IMG/VR virus record: IMGVR_UViG_3300009031_000368
Location: 128,001-192,000 of that record
Reading direction: 5' to 3' (one strand)
Source: a virus
Taxonomy: Duplodnaviria; Caudoviricetes
Length of the DNA: 64,000 nucleotides
The notes beneath the pieces are model-generated. The model saw nothing but the letters and a program-made list of their open reading frames with translations, searched no databases and was not told the DNA's origin. Each line of letters opens with the position of its first letter. The first letter of the stretch is position 1. Below are positions 8,437 through 32,305 of the stretch, piece by piece. Made by a program: the position numbers and the translations under genes.

Positions 8437-8874
8437 TTACCATACCTTCATTGCTTTGATTATTCCCGCCAACATGGATTGTTCATCCTCGATGCTGCAT
8501 CTCCTTTTACCAAGGAGTTTTTGATAATGTTCATGTACGGTCGTCAATACTTTGCTGATTACCGCATAGGTGTCATCATCAAATGATTCAAGTTCCAATA
8601 ACCTGTATCGATACGGATATCCGAACAATTGCCTTGTTGCGACCCAAACTTCAATTGTAACATCCCACGCAATTTGATCATTTACAAGTGGCTTCCTTGT
8701 ATTCATATTGGCATATAGAACGATTTGAAGCTTATTGACACAAATTGTTGTACTGGTTACCAACTTTGAAGCAATGACATCAATATCGCCGATCCGGCAA
8801 TATTCGGTGCCGACTTCGTCAATCAACATATAGACGGCATGCGCCTTATCCAGGATAGATTTCATGTCAACCAT
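8437..8874 (-). CDS. hypothetical protein (possible distant paralog of the two downstream genes)
   Basis: VATRQLFGYPYRY vs LATRKFLGFYYNY. Confidence 0.6.
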   Translation of the reverse strand: MVDMKSILDKAHAVYMLIDEVGTEYCRIGDIDVIASKLVTSTTICVNKLQIVLYANMNTRKPLVNDQIAWDVTIEVWVATRQLFGYPYRYRLLELESFDDDTYAVISKVLTTVHEHYQKLLGKRRCSIEDEQSMLAGIIKAMKVW

Positions 8875-10229
8875 CAGCCTTCAGCCTCCTCAGTATCAAT
8901 ATAGTCATCCTTCTGCTTGATGATTCCTTCAAGCACGCGAAAAATATAGCTTTTTTCTTTGTAGAACGAAACGGTTCCGTCCGGTTGTTCGACTCTGATG
9001 ACGACTCCTTCGTGTGGATGCCTGGCGTCTAGACCAGATGGGATTGCATCGGTTCCAGATTCACCATTGACCAATCGTTCTACCTTTGCTCGAAGCGCCT
9101 CCTCGTTGCCATCATACATAAACGATTCAATATGACGCACCGTTTCAACACCAAGCTCGCCGGATCGGCCGACAACCTGATACCATGAAAGATCAACCTC
9201 ATTACCGTCTTCAGCAACACGGGTGATGCGGTAAACCGTTAGCCTGGTTTGTGGCCCATTGGTGCCATCTGAACTACAGCCATAACTGTACTCAAAACAT
9301 TTACCAAACCGCTTTTCAATCTTCTTATCCTTCAATCCAGTGGTGTCATGACGGCCCATAATCGGCGCACCGGTATCGGTGTAACCGCAAAGCTCATAGT
9401 AGATGGCTTCGCCGGGATGAAGCGTTATATCTTTTACCGCATTGAATCGGAAGTTCTCGGTGCCGTAATACGAATTACCGGTTCGCCGTTCCAACACGAC
9501 GCGACGGCTACCATTCAGATATCGCCACGGATTGCGCTCAACTGATAACCCAACACGCCGTAACAGCCAATCACAACAACCGGCCAGACGTTTACGCCAG
9601 CCTGAAAGTTGAACAAGATCACGAACTTGTGCGGTACGCCCAGAAGTACCATGAAGCTTCTCGGTAATATGGATGATTGAACCAACCGGAATCTTGCTGG
9701 CGAAATACCTGAACTGTTGTGTTTCAATGTGTTCATGAAACATGACATTCTTTTTACGTGCAACCGGAGTAGACGCTGACTTCTTTGCACGCACGGTTGC
9801 CGGTGTTTCATATTTGGTGCAAACCACATGACCGTTCACGGTATCGATTAGATCTCCTTCTTTGAAGGAAGAAATATCACAGCCAGTCCAATCAAGCATT
9901 TCGACCGGACACCAAAAGCCATCCGATTTTACACCTTTCAGCTTAATGGCACGCACACGGCGGTTTGGTTCAAACATGCCACCGGCCGGCTTTCCGGTTT
10001 CATCTTTCCGTTTAACCAGATCCTTATTGGATGCAAAGGTTTCAGACAGGACACCATCACTGGGGAAGAATACGCCCAGTGTGCCATCCTGTGTTTCCTT
10101 GCCGACAATCACTTGATTGCCAAGACAATTCCCGATGGCCAACCGCTCAATCTTTTCGACAGAGCCATCCGGTTTAACGATATCCGGGAATGGACGTACA
10201 TGGATACTTGTTACGATTGCTTGATACAT
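8874..10229 (-). CDS. ATP-dependent RNA ligase, DRB0094/Rnl family
   Basis: N-terminal OB-like module (..QVIVGK..GTLGVFFPSDG); motif I TEKLHGTS, III YYELCG, IV EGVVIR, V YKEKS. Confidence 0.85.
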   Translation of the reverse strand: MYQAIVTSIHVRPFPDIVKPDGSVEKIERLAIGNCLGNQVIVGKETQDGTLGVFFPSDGVLSETFASNKDLVKRKDETGKPAGGMFEPNRRVRAIKLKGVKSDGFWCPVEMLDWTGCDISSFKEGDLIDTVNGHVVCTKYETPATVRAKKSASTPVARKKNVMFHEHIETQQFRYFASKIPVGSIIHITEKLHGTSGRTAQVRDLVQLSGWRKRLAGCCDWLLRRVGLSVERNPWRYLNGSRRVVLERRTGNSYYGTENFRFNAVKDITLHPGEAIYYELCGYTDTGAPIMGRHDTTGLKDKKIEKRFGKCFEYSYGCSSDGTNGPQTRLTVYRITRVAEDGNEVDLSWYQVVGRSGELGVETVRHIESFMYDGNEEALRAKVERLVNGESGTDAIPSGLDARHPHEGVVIRVEQPDGTVSFYKEKSYIFRVLEGIIKQKDDYIDTEEAEG

Positions 10230-10243
10230 AACGGACTCCTTAA

Positions 10244-10492
10244 TTACCACCAATAATAGATACGGACATTATCCAATGATTCATTTGGAAAGAAACCGGC
10301 GAGCAATTGCCGCAACTGTTTATACTCTGTTCTGTCGGCGCCAGGCAAATATAGGTATTCACCATTATGAGGCTCACATGCCTCTACGTATTGTGTCAAT
10401 TGCCGCAACTCTTCTTGAGTTTTATCCGATTCATCCAAAAATCTGTCTAGTTCAATATAATCAATTTCTTTTATGGTTTTAACTTTAAACAT
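10244..10492 (-). CDS. hypothetical protein
   Basis: 82-aa ORF. Confidence 0.6.
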   Translation of the reverse strand: MFKVKTIKEIDYIELDRFLDESDKTQEELRQLTQYVEACEPHNGEYLYLPGADRTEYKQLRQLLAGFFPNESLDNVRIYYWW

Positions 10493-13568: not shown

Positions 13569-14549
13569 TCAATGTGTGTAATGCGCTAGGATTGAATCGC
13601 TGTAGATTGATTCAACGTATTGCGTCCACCGTTCTAGATCGATTGAGCGCTGAAGCTTAGATGTCTGATGCGCGGCCAGAACACGATCCAATCGCTCTTC
13701 AATAAATACCTGAACTGTTTCATAACTGAAACAACCTGTTCTAATCTGTTTCAGCCATTCACAATTAGGCCGTGGCAGCGTGATGTGACCAGTAGTTAAC
13801 AGTTCTTCTGCTTCATCGGCAATCCGGACAGCATGCATCAACGCTTTGTAGTCGACACCATCATTGGTTAGAGTCTTTTTCGCCCGATCGCCGTATTGGT
13901 TCAACACTCTGTCATAGATCTTAAATGCTTCCTGCACGCTGAAATGAACCGGGCACTTCCTGCCGCAAACTTCAAGATGAATGATGGTATTGCCATGGTC
14001 CATCGTTATTGGAACAAGTTTGATGTCTTCATTCTGTGCCTCTAACACAAATCTTACAACCGGTGTCTCTTCAAGCTTAATGTGTTTATCTTGATCTCTA
14101 AGAAATTCAACAGTAAGCTGTGCGGCGGCAACCCGATTGCCCTTCACACAATACTTAGCGGCTTGAGTCTTACAGTAGCCTACAAATGCCGATGTGCCGG
14201 AATGAATCAAATCATTGCGATGTTCGGCGATAAATTCCCATTCCGGCGATGTAGTGGTCCAGGCATCTCGTGGAGCAAACAACATTTCAACCGCATTGGT
14301 TTGACCATCTTTCAACAGTACGGTCAAAAAGCTTTGTAGCGTAAACAGTTCAATGTCGGTATCGGTAGATGTATTTTTACCAGCCGATGATTTTGAACCG
14401 ACATTGATCGATGTCCGTGGCGCATTCTGCAACACCAAGTCTTTCGGCGATGGTACAAAAATGCCCTTGTAATCGGTATCTGATTCAGGAAGGTTGGTCC
14501 CGTAAAGCCGCGAACCAAAGATGGTTTGGAATAGGATCTTCATAATCAA
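13569..14549 (-). CDS. Pol-beta superfamily nucleotidyltransferase (RlaP / T4 NrdC.11-like)
   Basis: FGSRLYGTNLPESDTDYKGIF; D.KALMHAVRI C-terminal helix. Confidence 0.85.
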   Translation of the reverse strand: MIMKILFQTIFGSRLYGTNLPESDTDYKGIFVPSPKDLVLQNAPRTSINVGSKSSAGKNTSTDTDIELFTLQSFLTVLLKDGQTNAVEMLFAPRDAWTTTSPEWEFIAEHRNDLIHSGTSAFVGYCKTQAAKYCVKGNRVAAAQLTVEFLRDQDKHIKLEETPVVRFVLEAQNEDIKLVPITMDHGNTIIHLEVCGRKCPVHFSVQEAFKIYDRVLNQYGDRAKKTLTNDGVDYKALMHAVRIADEAEELLTTGHITLPRPNCEWLKQIRTGCFSYETVQVFIEERLDRVLAAHQTSKLQRSIDLERWTQYVESIYSDSILAHYTH

Positions 14550-22174: not shown

Positions 22175-22416
22175 AGTCCATAACCCTTGATAAGATAACT
22201 GTACAATCCCGCGTTACTGGATGAAACGACAGTAACCGCATGACGGATTGCTGTGTCGTTATCCCAGTCGTCGCCGACAATCCGCGCAATTTCGTCATAC
22301 AGCCTGATCAACTCGACACGGGTAATCAGCATATCGCCTCCGCCATCGAAATCTAGCCATATGATATCACATTGAGTATTTTTGTCAATATCTTTTTCTG
22401 AATTGACTTCAATCAT
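22171..22416 (-). CDS. hypothetical protein
   Basis: 81-aa ORF. Confidence 0.6.
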   Translation of the reverse strand: MIEVNSEKDIDKNTQCDIIWLDFDGGGDMLITRVELIRLYDEIARIVGDDWDNDTAIRHAVTVVSSSNAGLYSYLIKGYGL

Positions 22417-24056
22417 ACTTGTAGGACGCCGTAACGGTACGCGGCTGAAACGATTTTTTGTCCAAGCGCCGACAGCCCCGACTGTAATTCTCCATATAGC
22501 GGATTATCGGCGATGATATCCCGTATTTGATACAGGCTGGCATTCCATGCACGATGATGACTTTTATCGGTTCGCAACGATGCGGTTGATACGACAAGAC
22601 GGGTAGCGATGTTCAACAGCCGTTCAGCGTCTGCGCCAAGCTGATAACGTTTTAGCATATGTGCCGCATGGCAATACATATGAGATTCTCGCGCAGTCAT
22701 GTTGATACAACATCTTGGCGTATTGTCAATGATATATTGTGGATCTAGCCAAAAGAAGTGATTGTAGTAGAATGGGCCTTCTGAAATAATTTGGTTATCT
22801 GGATGTAGCGCGGAAAACACGATGCAATCTGAAACAAATTGTTTCATTTTATGTGACGTATACTTTGTAACATTGATCCGTTGATTGAAATTTATGGCAG
22901 TAAGGCTTACCGATTTACCTACCGCAAAGCAAACGGCAGACTGTATGAAGTTAGCGGATGTAATGAGAAATGGCGATCCGCCACGATAGTCATCGCTCGA
23001 CGGGCCATTTATTGCGAAAGATTGGACGTTCCCAATGGTTGCTTCGACATTGGAGTTATGTGAAAATTTGGCAAGTGGCGGCCCACTACCACTCCAACCA
23101 TAAGGAATAGTCCTATCACTATAAAGTAATTCCTTACTCCTGAATCCTATCGTGTTACCTGAAGCTTCATCTATCACTGGAACCAATAGGCTTTTGCTTT
23201 TCTCAAAACTATAATCATGACAGGCAAACAATACATACTGCTCGCCTGATGGTGTAACGATAATCCGTTCAGGTGAACAGTAATTGGTTATCGTGAGATG
23301 TATAACAGGCAGCGGTGCCGCCAAAACGATACAACTATCGGCAATCCGTAGCCCGTAGTCTCTATACATATCGGACAATGACTTCATTGTGCCGACAGTA
23401 TAGCGTATCAACAATACAGTTGGCCTATTGGCCGATATGATCTGTGCCAAGTTTGAATCTGTTACCGTTCCATCTATAACAACTACTTCACGGTCATTGC
23501 TCCATCCAGGCATAACGCCATTCAGGTATTGCTCCATTACACGACTGGCACCATCGGTAACGCAATGCTCCGGATAACGGCCAGGCCGGTAGCCGACATT
23601 AAAACAGGAGGAAGATGCCATCTGGTTTATTGTCGTTACAGCATCACAGTAACTTAAAGGCGTGAATTCAAAATCAGATAAAGCGTCTATCAGGCTATGG
23701 TCAGGCGTAGAAGCAGCCTTCTTCCAGTCATAACGTTCAAACAGGTGATGTATGATGTCACCCGTATCTACCACATAGCAGGATTCTCGATCGGCCAACA
23801 GGATGACGTTAGGCGCATCGTAACCATTAAAGATGAGATTTCTGACATAGTGGACTGTTTGAGCCAATGCGCGGGGCCTTGATTGCCTGTTGCGGCGACT
23901 GAACTGAAGTTTAAATTCCATCAATAATCGCAAATCACCAACAACACCATAGCCATCGGTCCCAACCGGTGATGTAATGATGATACCTGGGAAGCTCTTC
24001 TGAAGTTCTGACTTATAAAAAGCTTCAACGTCTTTTTCATTTGTCGCAGTGAGCAT
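22413..24056 (-). CDS. PD-(D/E)xK nuclease-domain protein with type IIG R-M-like C-terminus, no intact MTase motifs
   Basis: N-terminal TDG...LLMEFK, LAQ..HY; C-terminal DCIVFS..H, NHFFW, WNASLYQIR, L.QKI...Y.YG.L. Confidence 0.5.
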   Translation of the reverse strand: MLTATNEKDVEAFYKSELQKSFPGIIITSPVGTDGYGVVGDLRLLMEFKLQFSRRNRQSRPRALAQTVHYVRNLIFNGYDAPNVILLADRESCYVVDTGDIIHHLFERYDWKKAASTPDHSLIDALSDFEFTPLSYCDAVTTINQMASSSCFNVGYRPGRYPEHCVTDGASRVMEQYLNGVMPGWSNDREVVVIDGTVTDSNLAQIISANRPTVLLIRYTVGTMKSLSDMYRDYGLRIADSCIVLAAPLPVIHLTITNYCSPERIIVTPSGEQYVLFACHDYSFEKSKSLLVPVIDEASGNTIGFRSKELLYSDRTIPYGWSGSGPPLAKFSHNSNVEATIGNVQSFAINGPSSDDYRGGSPFLITSANFIQSAVCFAVGKSVSLTAINFNQRINVTKYTSHKMKQFVSDCIVFSALHPDNQIISEGPFYYNHFFWLDPQYIIDNTPRCCINMTARESHMYCHAAHMLKRYQLGADAERLLNIATRLVVSTASLRTDKSHHRAWNASLYQIRDIIADNPLYGELQSGLSALGQKIVSAAYRYGVLQV

Positions 24057-26010
24057 AAATTAGATACCCAATTCTATCAATATCTAAATCAGAACTAATT
24101 TTACCCGTCGCCATCGTATTGTTCCCGCCGCTTTTAGCAGTTATAACCTTCAACAGTTGAATGGCCGGATATCGTTCTGACAGTTCGGCCGATACTGATA
24201 TAACTATTTGTTGGCCATATTTCAGCACAACAATACATGGTCCGAAACGATCACGGAGTCTATCGGTTTGAAGTCGCATTTCTTCAACAGTGTTAAGTAT
24301 TGTATCGGATGCAATTATCAGCACATCAGACGATAGATTATAGAAACTATGTGAATCAGATTCCATATTAAAATCTGCCGCGACTCTTTTATACTCAATC
24401 AGCTGTCGTTCAAGGCTCTGGCACTTCTCCTTCAAATCCTTAACAGCTGTAACGGGATCACTGCCAAGCTCTTTCCGCAGCAATGTCATGATACAACTAT
24501 ATTGTTGCATGATGTTAAACGCATCGTCGCCGGCCACATATTTGAACCATCTCGCATATGGGCCACTTGAACCATAATCCAAAACTTTTACATGATGGCT
24601 GGTTTCAAACTTACTGATGATATCATCATCCACAGGCTTGTAGTGTTGAAACGTAGTCGTATATACGTTCATACCATCTGTTGATTCAAAATCATCAGAG
24701 ATGATAATGGCATGATTGCCAAAACTGTCTAATAATGCTGGTCCGATTGGACACATGCTGGTATCAACACATTGAACAACCGTTACGTGTTGAGTCTTGT
24801 CGATATCGCTTCTATCGGTAAAACGTTCAATGTTAACATCGGGCGCAATCAATTGCATGTCTTCACGATATATGCCGTATCTGTTTTTCAATTCCTTGAC
24901 GAACGTTTCATTAACTGTTTGACCGCCATTCCGTTTAACATATTCCAGATAGACCTTACTGCCACGATTCAGATTGCTCCAATAGAGATCTGTTTCAATG
25001 CCGAGCACATCAAAGATTGTTGTTTTATTCTCTTTCAACTTCGGATACACGTCAGACATCGTATCGATAACCGATTTGACTGGTGCCACAATATCATTCA
25101 ATCCAAGCAAGCCAGCATGCCTGATGGCGCGACGAATGATTTTCTTTACCACATGACCACGATCCTTTTCCGATGGGAAGACATACTCGGACAACAGGAA
25201 GACAATCGCGCGGCTATGGTCGGCAATGACACGAATCGATACATCACGATTTGGATCTATGCCATAATTGGCCGGGATTGATTCAATGATGGGAACAAAT
25301 AGATCGGTATCATAGTTGGATGTTTTACCTTGAAGCACAGACGCGACACGCTCCAACCCCATACCGGTATCAATATGTAGTCGGCCGGTGTCCTTCATGG
25401 TTCCATCCGGATCCATTACCTGTTGCATGAATACAATGTTCCAAATTTCAAGGTATCTGTTTGGCTCAACGATAGGATTAGTTCGTGGCAGATCCGGTGT
25501 TAGATCATAAAACACTTCAGTGCATGGACCGCATGGTCCACTATTACCCATTGTCCAAAAGTTATCTGAACACGGTGTAATGTTGCTATACCACACCAGA
25601 TCACTCCATACCCGATAGGCGTCAACATCTTGTGGATGTACGGTGATATGCAGTCTGGTTTTATCCACGCCGAGCCATCCCATCAGATGGTCAGCTTCCT
25701 CGATTACAGATACTTTTTCGTCTGTTGAAAACCTGAAGTTGCCCAGCATTTCAAAGAATGTATGGTGTCGTGGCGACTTGCCCACTTCTTCAAAATCGTT
25801 ATGCTTGCCTGATACCCGTAGGCACTTTTGGCATGTCGTTGCATTCCAGGGCTTTTGATTTCTTAGAAAATCAGGCTTAAATTGAACCATGCCGGAATTG
25901 GTAAAGAATAGCGTGTCATCATCGGGGACAATCAACGATGACGGACGCTGCCAATAGCCTTGCTGCTTAAAGAAATGCAGGAAGTTATTTCTGATATCTA
26001 TTGACTTCAT
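24037..26010 (-). CDS. alaS: alanyl-tRNA synthetase, editing domain degenerate
   Basis: FTNSGMVQFK, QKCLRVSGKHND, HHTFFEMLGNF, GPCGPCTE, IDTGMGLER, VIADHSR, C-terminal KSGGN; 657 aa. Confidence 0.93.
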   Translation of the reverse strand: MKSIDIRNNFLHFFKQQGYWQRPSSLIVPDDDTLFFTNSGMVQFKPDFLRNQKPWNATTCQKCLRVSGKHNDFEEVGKSPRHHTFFEMLGNFRFSTDEKVSVIEEADHLMGWLGVDKTRLHITVHPQDVDAYRVWSDLVWYSNITPCSDNFWTMGNSGPCGPCTEVFYDLTPDLPRTNPIVEPNRYLEIWNIVFMQQVMDPDGTMKDTGRLHIDTGMGLERVASVLQGKTSNYDTDLFVPIIESIPANYGIDPNRDVSIRVIADHSRAIVFLLSEYVFPSEKDRGHVVKKIIRRAIRHAGLLGLNDIVAPVKSVIDTMSDVYPKLKENKTTIFDVLGIETDLYWSNLNRGSKVYLEYVKRNGGQTVNETFVKELKNRYGIYREDMQLIAPDVNIERFTDRSDIDKTQHVTVVQCVDTSMCPIGPALLDSFGNHAIIISDDFESTDGMNVYTTTFQHYKPVDDDIISKFETSHHVKVLDYGSSGPYARWFKYVAGDDAFNIMQQYSCIMTLLRKELGSDPVTAVKDLKEKCQSLERQLIEYKRVAADFNMESDSHSFYNLSSDVLIIASDTILNTVEEMRLQTDRLRDRFGPCIVVLKYGQQIVISVSAELSERYPAIQLLKVITAKSGGNNTMATGKISSDLDIDRIGYLIYAHCDK

Positions 26011-26210
26011 TTTACTCTCATCGAATAATCGCATGCCATATATTCAGCATCGTCTTTTGTCGTCAATGTGATGAACTAGCTAACCTCAGATGTCCAATAA
26101 TGATCGGTTGGTAAATCGTTATACCAAATCATCATCCCGCATCGTTCGCAACACCGACGCTCAGAGCCATAAGGTTGACCGTTTTGTGTCTTTAGATGTA
26201 AAATTAACAT
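26007..26210 (-). other. small Cys-containing ORF with an in-frame TAG (26076-26078); final TGA overlaps the alaS ATG
   Basis: MLILHLKTQNGQPYGSERRCCERCG...EVS*FITLTTKDDAEYMACDYSMRVK*. Confidence 0.5.
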
Positions 26211-26644
26211 ACCAGGTTCACAAGATCCGAGAATCCGTATTCTTTAATCAGATTCTCGGTACACGCCATCAGTGGTTTCGGCCAATCCTCTAGATCATAA
26301 ATCTTGAACCAGCCAAATTCAGTAAATTTATCTGGTTCCATGATTCGAGCCTTGGTTGGATTAGTTACTACGGCAGTCATCCACACCGTTACATAATGCT
26401 TGCCTTCCGGCATGATGTCATTAACGGCTGTAAGAAAACTCACCGGTCCTAACTCGATGTCAAACTCTTCTTTTGACTCACGCCGGACACACTGTTTAAA
26501 CGATTCCCCATATTCCAGGTGACCACCTGGGAATGCCCATGTGCCGGATTGATGACTGCCGGTACGTTTACCCAATAGAATATAGCAATCACCGTCAAAA
26601 TGACTCATGGCAATAACCGCTGTTCCAACAAGTGGGCGATTCAT
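26204..26644 (-). CDS. NUDIX hydrolase (MutT/NUDT15-like)
   Basis: Nudix box GGHLEYGESFKQCVRRESKEE; KHYVT, MEPDK. Confidence 0.9.
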   Translation of the reverse strand: MNRPLVGTAVIAMSHFDGDCYILLGKRTGSHQSGTWAFPGGHLEYGESFKQCVRRESKEEFDIELGPVSFLTAVNDIMPEGKHYVTVWMTAVVTNPTKARIMEPDKFTEFGWFKIYDLEDWPKPLMACTENLIKEYGFSDLVNLVC

Positions 26645-30916: not shown

Positions 30917-32305
30917 TTACTCCTTCTGTTCAATTAGGCTTCTGGCGAACATCAATGCGCCATCAAGGTCATCGAAACATCCATCCAGCTGCGCTTCAAA
31001 CGCGGCTCTGGTGATTTCTCCAATCGTTTTACCTGGCGTCAGTCCAAGTTCGAGCAGATGCCGGCCAAACAGAATTGGTTTTACGGATCCATTATCAGAC
31101 CTGGTTTCGCGCGACAATTCCAGCATCGTTTGTGCCGATTCCGGCAACCCTTTCGGCAACGGTGGACGTCCGCTGGCGTCAGCTTCAATCAACAGGCACA
31201 ATTCACGGATTGTTGCCTTCCCGAGCCTAACGGCAAGCCGACGAACCGCCTTAGCGGATTGACAGCTACCATGAGCCAGATGATTTGTTACAAGCGGGAT
31301 GATGCGATCCAACAATGCACCGTTATGTCGTTCATCGATGCCGATCCCTGATAAAAACTTTATCGCTGGAACTTTACCCGCCTTTTCATGACCGAGCGAT
31401 CGGATTCGTCCATCGATCACTTCGGTTGTAAACGGCTTCGCCATATCGTGGCACAACGCGGCCAACATCAATACCGCTCTATCGTCATCGACAATTGATT
31501 CCCTGTCGCAGATCTCTGACATGCAGTCTACAACGTGGTATGTGTGTTGGAAGCAATCGACCTCTGGATGCCATACCGGATCTTGTTCAACGCCATACAT
31601 GGCGAACAATTCAGGATACAATTCAATCCAACCGGTATCGCACAAGAACATCAATCCCATCGATGGAACGGTTGACTTCGTCGCCCACTTATACCACTCA
31701 CCAAAGATGCGTTCTTTTGATAACGTGCCGTATTCATCGCGCAATCGATTGCACAATGTTGCCGTGTGGACGTCCACCGTCATGTTAAAGCGTCCAGCGA
31801 ACTGCATCCCCCGCAATACGCGCAACGGGTCTTCGGCAAATCGCTCTGATGTATGCTTTAGAACGCCAAGCCTAAAATGTGAATCGCCACCAAATAGATC
31901 GATAAATTCCGATGATGCGAAACTATACATCTGTGCATTGCACGTATAATCGCGCAGGGAGCATGCTTGATTGATCGTCATATGCGGATCCGGCTCGGGA
32001 ATGAAGCCCTTATGGCCGGAACCATTTTTACTCTCACGGCTCGGAATGCTGAAGTCAAAATCATACCCGTCAACAGAAATCTTTATCACTCCAAAAGTCG
32101 CGCCAACAACGTCCGGAGATCCAAAGCCTGAAAGCACGTCAACAATCTGTTGTGCCGGTAGTCCATAGACTTCAACGTCCAGATCCTTTGGCGTGTTGCC
32201 GCTGCGCAAATCGCGGACACCGCCACCGACCAGATAGCAATTCCCGCCAACGTCGTGTAATGCGGCGACTATGCGTAGAAGCACGTTTGGAAATAGATCT
32301 AACAT
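30917..32305 (-). CDS. cca: CCA-adding enzyme / tRNA nucleotidyltransferase with HD domain
   Basis: YLVGGGVRD, DLDVEV, RDYTCNA, EDPLRVLR, ERIF.E, WHPE...HT, ALCHDMAK, GHE. Confidence 0.9.
   Translation of the reverse strand: MLDLFPNVLLRIVAALHDVGGNCYLVGGGVRDLRSGNTPKDLDVEVYGLPAQQIVDVLSGFGSPDVVGATFGVIKISVDGYDFDFSIPSRESKNGSGHKGFIPEPDPHMTINQACSLRDYTCNAQMYSFASSEFIDLFGGDSHFRLGVLKHTSERFAEDPLRVLRGMQFAGRFNMTVDVHTATLCNRLRDEYGTLSKERIFGEWYKWATKSTVPSMGLMFLCDTGWIELYPELFAMYGVEQDPVWHPEVDCFQHTYHVVDCMSEICDRESIVDDDRAVLMLAALCHDMAKPFTTEVIDGRIRSLGHEKAGKVPAIKFLSGIGIDERHNGALLDRIIPLVTNHLAHGSCQSAKAVRRLAVRLGKATIRELCLLIEADASGRPPLPKGLPESAQTMLELSRETRSDNGSVKPILFGRHLLELGLTPGKTIGEITRAAFEAQLDGCFDDLDGALMFARSLIEQKE

Follow-up and report, generated by a model that had tools for sequence, protein, structure and literature searches.

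A highly diverged alanyl-tRNA synthetase of a groundwater jumbo phage, without the zinc editing site and with both G3:U70-reading residues replaced

Textbooks present alanyl-tRNA synthetase (AlaRS) as an enzyme with a fixed four-domain architecture and an identity rule that depends on a single base pair. The locus described here raises the question of what an AlaRS does when it departs from both. It lies in a stretch of 64,000 bp (the window), bases 128001-192000 of the IMG/VR virus record IMGVR_UViG_3300009031_000368 (231,714 bp, judged 76% complete), and consists of an alaS-like gene on the minus strand (Table 1). Identical copies of the gene are present on contigs from groundwater metagenomes, and the virus is a groundwater jumbo phage with an alanine-charging enzyme of its own that is highly diverged. 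Compared with canonical bacterial AlaRS (E. coli AlaS; TIGR00344), the zinc editing site of this enzyme is gone, the E. coli residues Asn303 and Asp400 are replaced by Glu and Asn, 30 of 118 near-invariant positions are changed, and the protein is about 210 residues shorter. In our judgement the chances are about even that it is an active, non-proofreading AlaRS of the bacterial type, which the phage captured, which is under selection, and which would charge the full-length tRNA-Ala of the host.

The alignment, made with HMMER and MAFFT, comprised the phage protein, the AlaRS of E. coli and 117 bacterial homologs from a search of 5.8 billion proteins. Residues of the phage protein are numbered in the 665-aa frame; the E. 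coli numbering counts Met1, which puts N303 in PSN, D400 in LYD and C666 in CGGTH and makes the D235 of the literature D236. The alignment places PSEKDRGHVVKKIIRRA opposite PSNENRGYVLRRIIRRA, so that E. coli N303 corresponds to Glu289, and LKNRYG opposite LYDTYG, so that D400 corresponds to Asn384. This reproduces exactly the alignment that the initial annotation had made by eye. Asn303 is kept in 111 and Asp400 in 116 of the 118 bacterial AlaRS, and the pair is conserved in >95% of >2,500 AlaRS (Chong et al., PMC6055181). The two replacements are part of a wider set of substitutions on the acceptor-stem surface (G298Y, N303E, Y308H, L310V, R311K, R312K, D400N, T401R and P405Y). The positive charge of the tRNA-recognition domain is nonetheless retained or raised: its net charge is +1 versus a bacterial mean of -4.3, and helix 296-320 stands at +4, as in bacteria.

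The aminoacylation domain is complete. Pfam PF01411 matches residues 13-402 (E 8e-109), the best matches in a PDB search are catalytic fragments of bacterial AlaRS (E 1e-87, ~40% identity), and the AlphaFold2 (AF2) model superposes on the E. coli and human catalytic fragments (3hxu, 4xem) with TMt values of 0.79-0.84 (0.79 for E. coli 3hxu). All alanine- and ATP-site residues that we checked are identical to the consensus of the 118 bacterial AlaRS; in E. coli these are R70, GKHND 73-77, R86-N96, F170/W171, GPCGPC-E184, W212/N213/V215, D236-T-G238 and G240-R243. Formation of Ala-AMP would still be carried out by the phage AlaRS.

The HxxxH and CGGTH motifs of the zinc editing site are absent from the phage AlaRS in the MAFFT alignment, and the ~210 residues by which it falls short of the ~875-aa enzymes are missing from the part that follows the tRNA-recognition domain. 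Pfam gave neither a tRNA_SAD nor a DHHA1 match in the protein, its C-terminal pieces gave noise only, and a phmmer search with residues 400-665 against 1.84 billion representatives returned the protein itself and no relative. With hhalign, residues 493-644 align with the C-terminal part of bacterial AlaRS, from the last editing strand through the coiled coil to C-Ala (97.4% probability, E 1e-11). Residues 384-665 were also modelled on their own with AF2; the predicted local distance difference test (pLDDT) score of this model is 83.7, and its residues 562-665 match the Aquifex aeolicus C-Ala domain (3g98_B) with Z 16.4 and a root-mean-square deviation (rmsd) of 1.9 Å over 103/111 residues. The complete catalytic domain, the missing editing motifs and the retained coiled coil with a DHHA1-like tail had all been claimed in the initial annotation, and each of these claims holds.

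Between the tRNA-recognition domain and the coiled coil, residues 425-503 resemble the core of an editing domain. VIA-align matches them to the Archaeoglobus fulgidus AlaRS editing domain 2zze_A (Z 8.7, rmsd 1.7, 75 aa over a 140-residue span), to AlaX-M 9iuw_A (Z 8.3), to AlaX 1v7o_A (Z 7.6) and to ThrRS (Z 6.4), where a Z near 8 is the background level of the tool. A collinear match to the whole AlaRS 3wqy_A (600-903) reaches Z 12.9. When residues 400-505 were compared by themselves, hhalign gave a probability of 1.5%, which is not significant, though it picked the collinear FSHxxP segment. Since the individual Z values are at background and the hhalign piece is not significant, the case for homology of this skeleton is one of structure and collinearity. 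The zinc editing site has been removed by an internal deletion that left a skeleton of ~75 residues as a spacer and kept the coiled coil and C-Ala. We found no tRNA_SAD match (the AlaX-type domain) anywhere in the 231.7-kb record, and a tblastn search of it for an editing or C-Ala gene that had split off found none.

The evidence for selection comes from the open frame. In a maximum-likelihood tree the terminal branch of the phage AlaRS measures 4.65 changes per column, the longest in the tree, versus a median of 0.27. When substitutions were simulated without constraint, 0.1% of 657-codon copies were still open at 0.1 substitutions per nucleotide. The frame has stayed open despite a branch of this length, which implies selection on the gene. 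A tRNA is the probable substrate because the adenylation site is intact, the frame is selected, and both the RNA-binding charge and C-Ala, which is the main tRNA-binding module in E. coli AlaRS (PMC10036535), are retained. C-Ala would hold the tRNA elbow, and the remodelled, still positive acceptor-stem surface would take the place of the canonical Asn/Asp readers.

A parallel for such a replacement exists in the mini-AlaRS of Tupanvirus (TuAlaRS), which has Pro and Thr at the Asn and Asp positions and is without an editing or C-Ala domain (Antika et al. 2023, Commun Biol, PMC10036535). It is still specific for G3:U70 and complements yeast ala1 (PMC10036535). Like TuAlaRS, the phage enzyme is virus-encoded, has no editing, has both readers replaced (Glu/Asn here) and keeps the class II motifs intact. 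Unlike the phage enzyme, TuAlaRS is of the eukaryote type, has 461 aa and no C-Ala, and belongs to a virus with four G3:U70 tRNA-Ala genes, whereas the phage enzyme is of the bacterial type and of independent origin, keeps an editing skeleton, coiled coil and C-Ala, and is encoded in a record without tRNA genes. The TuAlaRS precedent removes the main objection to an active enzyme that charges the tRNA-Ala of the host.

Table 1. Positions of the alaS-like gene, its domains and key codons, neighbouring genes, and mini-AlaRS genes on other viral contigs. Positions without a locus prefix refer to the window.
Feature	Position	Strand	Remark
alaS-like coding sequence	24037..26010	-	657 aa + stop; upstream ATG at 26034 gives a 665-aa alternative
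Class II catalytic (aminoacylation) domain, residues 9-245	25300..26010	-	All alanine/ATP-site residues kept; AF2 pLDDT mostly 80-95
Thr216 codon at E. coli Leu230 (Methylomonas Leu219) position	25387..25389	-	Residue controlling serine misactivation (PMC12143591)
Helical tRNA-recognition domain, residues 246-402	24829..25299	-	Remodelled acceptor-stem surface; pLDDT 84-95
Glu289 codon (GAA) at E. coli Asn303 position	25168..25170	-	Asn303 reads O4 of U70 (PMC6055181)
Asn384 codon (AAC) at E. coli Asp400 position	24883..24885	-	Asp400 reads 2-amino group of G3 (PMC6055181)
Low-confidence linker, residues 403-424	24763..24828	-	Expected place of beta-barrel subdomain and HxxxH; pLDDT <50 in both models, MAFFT gaps
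Putative vestigial editing-core skeleton, residues 425-503 (alpha-beta-beta-alpha-beta-beta)	24526..24762	-	pLDDT 81-92; no zinc ligands, no CxxxH loop
Long helical (coiled-coil) C-Ala linker, residues 504-558	24361..24525	-	Helices and globule match A. fulgidus dimerisation domain 2zvf_A, Z 13.4
Globular C-Ala (DHHA1-like) domain, residues 562-665	24040..24351	-	AF2 model compared with A. aeolicus 3g98_B
NUDIX hydrolase gene	26204..26644	-	Directly upstream of alaS-like gene; PF00293, E 2.6e-18
CCA-adding tRNA nucleotidyltransferase with HD domain	30917..32305	-	
RNA ligase	8874..10253	-	
RlaP-type (RNA repair pathway) nucleotidyltransferase	13569..14549	-	
Mini-AlaRS	L025:1998-3299		434 aa
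Mini-AlaRS	L026:1941-3332		464 aa; likewise L027 and L028
Mini-AlaRS	L034:397-1803		469 aa

Several results weigh against this reading. In E. coli AlaRS, D400N lowers the relative kcat/Km to 0.04, a 25-fold drop, and N303D lowers it to 0.012, an 83-fold drop (Chong et al., PMC6055181); these losses bear out the role of Asn and Asp as the G3:U70 readers, which the initial annotation had stated, and taken alone they would predict a crippled or re-targeted enzyme. The TIGR00344 score of 363.4 bits is under the curated equivalog cut-off of 457 bits, and PF01411 gives this protein 365 bits compared with 528-612 bits for other phage mini-AlaRS. Of the 118 positions in E. coli 1-441 with >=97% conservation, no bacterial homolog has more than 10 changed, a third of the number in the phage AlaRS. 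The departures cluster in five places, which are the GDYFK motif following motif 2 (STDEK in the phage AlaRS), the LPxPS segment preceding the catalytic Asp (TGRLH in the phage AlaRS), the N303 helix, positions 364-370 and the D400 loop (D400N, T401R, P405Y, D407E). Five contigs from other samples show a 0-nt difference within the AlaRS gene, so the phage population is clonal and a dN/dS test is impossible. Finally, why alanine alone would require a phage enzyme has no explanation.

An alternative that draws on the same results is a relic that is degenerating or has become a weak catalyst, or else a folded pseudo-enzyme that binds tRNA, e.g., one that sequesters tRNA-Ala or transfer-messenger RNA (tmRNA) without charging it. 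The longest branch in the tree, the loss of invariant positions, which includes hydrophobic-to-acidic changes in GDYFK, the C-terminal 266 aa that have no relative among the phmmer representatives, and the large loss of activity that the E. coli single mutants predict would all suit such a protein. However, every substrate-binding residue examined has been spared, the open frame and the confident fold argue for selection, and a pure binder has no need of an intact adenylation site. We consider this alternative rather unlikely.

The replaced readers could also mean that the identity rule itself has changed, as the initial annotation had proposed when it suggested a non-canonical tRNA as the substrate. 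In this case Glu303 and Asn400 would no longer read G3:U70, and tRNAs of the G3:C70 type, repaired tRNAs or a phage tRNA-like RNA would be alanylated; as editing is lost too, translation would be recoded or blurred on purpose. Both readers are indeed replaced, and the surface around them is remodelled (G298Y, Y308H, RR to KK, T401R, P405Y). The E. coli N303A enzyme has a relative kcat/Km of 1.9, loses the rejection of G3:C70 and gains activity with G3:C70 tRNA (Chong et al., PMC6055181), and the human mitochondrial AlaRS, which has Met and Gly at the two positions, is G3:U70-independent (PMC10036535; PMC6451123). However, the AlaRS of C. elegans mitochondria is without the Asn/Asp pair and yet G3:U70-specific (PMC10036535), as is TuAlaRS, so that the loss of Asn and Asp alone does not predict a new tRNA specificity. 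Moreover, a carboxylate at position 303 would repel O4 of U70, yet it offers no obvious positive reader of another pair. Of the earlier proposal, the loss of the readers thus stands, and the altered specificity is weakened; we regard a changed identity rule as unlikely. Like these mitochondrial variants, the phage enzyme is a natural AlaRS without the Asn/Asp pair, and recognition was kept in the one (C. elegans) and re-invented in the other (human). The mitochondrial enzymes differ in that they are organellar, have co-evolved with bizarre mitochondrial tRNAs and retain editing; no partner tRNA is known for the phage enzyme.

A phage tRNA had been offered as one candidate for the non-canonical substrate, and a search of the record did not bear this out. 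ARAGORN and Infernal (RF00005, E up to 1) found no canonical tRNA or tmRNA in the 231.7 kb, and the hundreds to thousands of calls that ARAGORN returns at relaxed thresholds are noise. One intergenic tRNA-like element lies at genome positions 207691-207767 on the minus strand (L051:292-368). The acceptor stem of this element comprises 7 bp and includes G3:C70, position 73 is A, and the T-arm is canonical, with a TTCGAGC loop; these features would fit a changed identity rule. A D-arm is missing, and CCA is not encoded. However, Infernal gives it no Rfam tRNA match even at E 10, and its minimum free energy fold (folding z = -2.5) is not a cloverleaf and keeps the acceptor stem only. In the strongest form of this idea, the enzyme would be off the G3:U70 rule altogether and, through unproofread alanylation of this G3:C70/A73 element or of tRNAs rebuilt by the ligase and the CCA-adding enzyme, would act as an orthogonal or recoding synthetase of the phage, which we think quite unlikely. 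Unless biochemical work demonstrates such a change, the enzyme is not evidence for a new coding rule.

If the enzyme charges the tRNA-Ala of the host, as we favour, its accuracy becomes a concern. The absence of editing by itself makes an error-prone enzyme, a further proposal of the initial annotation, plausible. The resulting Ser- and Gly-tRNA-Ala may be tolerated in a short infection or be cleared in trans by the AlaRS, AlaX or DTD of the host. Thr216 takes the place of Leu230, which is kept in 118/118 bacterial AlaRS and in every other viral AlaRS examined. In the Methylomonas AlaRS, L219M and L219F each put an end to serine misactivation, an effect that does not depend on editing and that L219A lacks, and the 1-429 fragment, which is without editing, is active (PMC12143591, 2025). 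As L219A gave no gain in fidelity, a compensating effect of Thr216 for the lost editing is unproven. In its editing loss the phage AlaRS is like the E. coli C666A enzyme, which is editing-defective and mischarges Ser and Gly, and in the change of the Leu219 pocket it is like the Methylomonas L219M enzyme (PMC12143591); both of these differ in being point mutants of full-length enzymes, and the phage has Thr at the Leu219 position.

The loss of editing is not confined to this phage. A profile-guided scan of IMG/VR returned 43 AlaRS loci, the majority of them full-length bacterial-type genes near contig ends, and a scan of viral contigs with the single protein found no close relative of the phage AlaRS. 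On IMG/VR huge-phage contigs of 25 to 411 kb, however, there are mini-AlaRS of 434-469 aa that end directly after the tRNA-recognition domain, and tblastn found no editing or C-Ala piece encoded downstream of these genes. Like the phage enzyme they are phage-borne, of the bacterial type and without the editing domain; they differ in having no C-Ala, in their higher PF01411 scores (528-612 bits for L025, L026-L028 and L034) and in keeping Asn303, Asp400 and Leu230. Eukaryote-type mini-AlaRS with both readers changed are found at the giant-virus-type locus L037 (Ala/Thr) and in the giant-virus metagenome-assembled genome L038; these two form a separate group in the tree with 100/99 support. The phage AlaRS is placed among Desulfobacterota/Myxococcota-type bacterial AlaRS, away from the other viral AlaRS, a placement that is uncertain given the long branch. 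BFVD contains giant-virus AlaRS only, of 464 and 513 aa.

Editing loss is thus recurrent and independent when viruses capture alaS. Among the editing-less viral AlaRS that we found, the phage protein alone keeps C-Ala, and it alone is of the bacterial type with both readers replaced. The literature that we searched yielded no account of phage AlaRS that are truncated or editing-less; phage aminoacyl-tRNA synthetases (aaRS) in general are already known (PMC7162821). The Tupanvirus AlaRS had been singled out as the sole natural example of its kind (PMC10036535). Viral editing-less AlaRS are therefore already known as a kind, described once before and then called unique, and the phage enzyme and the huge-phage mini-AlaRS show that they recur; the form with C-Ala and replaced readers is new. 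It represents a natural intermediate in which the editing site is deleted and C-Ala is kept. The nearest single equivalents of two of its substitutions cripple E. coli AlaRS, and the residue that governs serine misactivation is changed as well, so that it provides a test of how G3:U70 recognition and fidelity may be rebuilt. Compact or orthogonal AlaRS variants could also be developed from it. Should it turn out to be inactive or re-targeted, this would bear on why a phage without tRNA genes keeps one synthetase among RNA-repair genes.

Some further observations concern the AlaRS of bacteria and of other phages. The full-length bacterial AlaRS P0003, P0012, P0016, P0031 and P0094 have a natural Lys at the Asn303 position and keep Asp400 and the editing motifs; P0003 is the top match to the phage protein, and one member of the P0031 cluster bears the name Syntrophorhabdaceae. 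The 411-kb phage encodes 53 tRNAs, and four tRNA-Ala genes, all G3:U70 by reading of the sequences, adjoin its mini-AlaRS (L075:1336-2200). In two of these four, an additional U seems to bulge out of the 3' acceptor strand between positions 68 and 69. On phage contigs of 207 and 194 kb (L047:1875-2816 and L048:1914-2825), proteins of ~305-315 aa match only the first ~140 positions of the AlaRS catalytic profile, with 73 bits; GKHND and most of what follows motif 2 in the domain are missing, which makes them tiny AlaRS-core-like proteins. Matches found with tblastn in INPHARED were rejected as phage mini-AlaRS, as they represent bacterial contamination, prophage flanks, or full-length or 600-aa AlaRS in unverified fecal contigs.

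The genes around the alaS-like gene offer a setting for the host tRNA-Ala reading. A same-strand block (window 8874-33158, minus strand) holds the RNA ligase, the RlaP-type and CCA-adding nucleotidyltransferases and the NUDIX hydrolase, together with a weak DSP-like phosphatase, a metallophosphoesterase and a Bax1-I membrane protein. The block has the look of a gene set for end healing and repair of RNA/tRNA, and the record that contains it is without tRNA genes. The role of the AlaRS would be to sustain or restore the supply of Ala-tRNA during infection, perhaps as a recharging step after repair of the tRNA 3'-end or anticodon by the RNA ligase, RlaP, phosphoesterases and the CCA-adding enzyme. 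An anti-defence role, also raised in the initial annotation, may be considered as well, from these neighbouring RNA-repair genes only.

A different explanation is that the enzyme works outside translation and makes Ala-AMP, Ala-tRNA or Ser/Gly-tRNA-Ala for aminoacyl-tRNA-dependent modification, for protein acylation (as a lactyltransferase), or for signalling of the diadenosine tetraphosphate (Ap4A) type via NUDIX. The phage DNA hypermodification enzyme Mom is proven to use an aminoacyl-tRNA, Gly-tRNA, as a co-substrate (PMC13219725), the reported lactyltransferase activity of AlaRS depends on the Leu219 pocket (PMC12143591) that is altered here, and the NUDIX gene is the direct upstream neighbour. 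In addition, AlaRS is the sole aaRS family found in the record among the families searched: there is no class IIa/IIb or class Ia aaRS domain, while the Pfam families for class Ib/Ic/Id/Ie, PheRS, GlyQS and MetRS were not searched. However, no aminoacyl-tRNA-using transferase was identified nearby (the genome was not searched for Fem, MprF or Mom-like families), the open reading frame (ORF) downstream gives weak nuclease- or methylase-like leads only, and the idea is entirely indirect. We consider it very unlikely.

Two minor points concern the ends of the gene. The open frame (24037..26034, minus strand) has 665 codons, and the ATG at 26010 gives 657 aa. The latter is the likelier start because a GAGAG purine run precedes it by 4 nt and because its position agrees with the N-termini of other AlaRS; the gene calls of ENA and Logan chose the 657-aa start as well. 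At the other end, a 547-aa ORF (window 22413-24056, minus strand) overlaps the alaS stop by 20 nt and has no sequence relative outside the phage population. As it is an ORFan with weak leads only, we rejected it as a candidate trans-editing factor. These leads are an N-terminal D...EFK motif and weak language-model and structure matches to PD-(D/E)xK proteins (BpuSI_N, DUF7149) and to phage Eco57I-like methylases.

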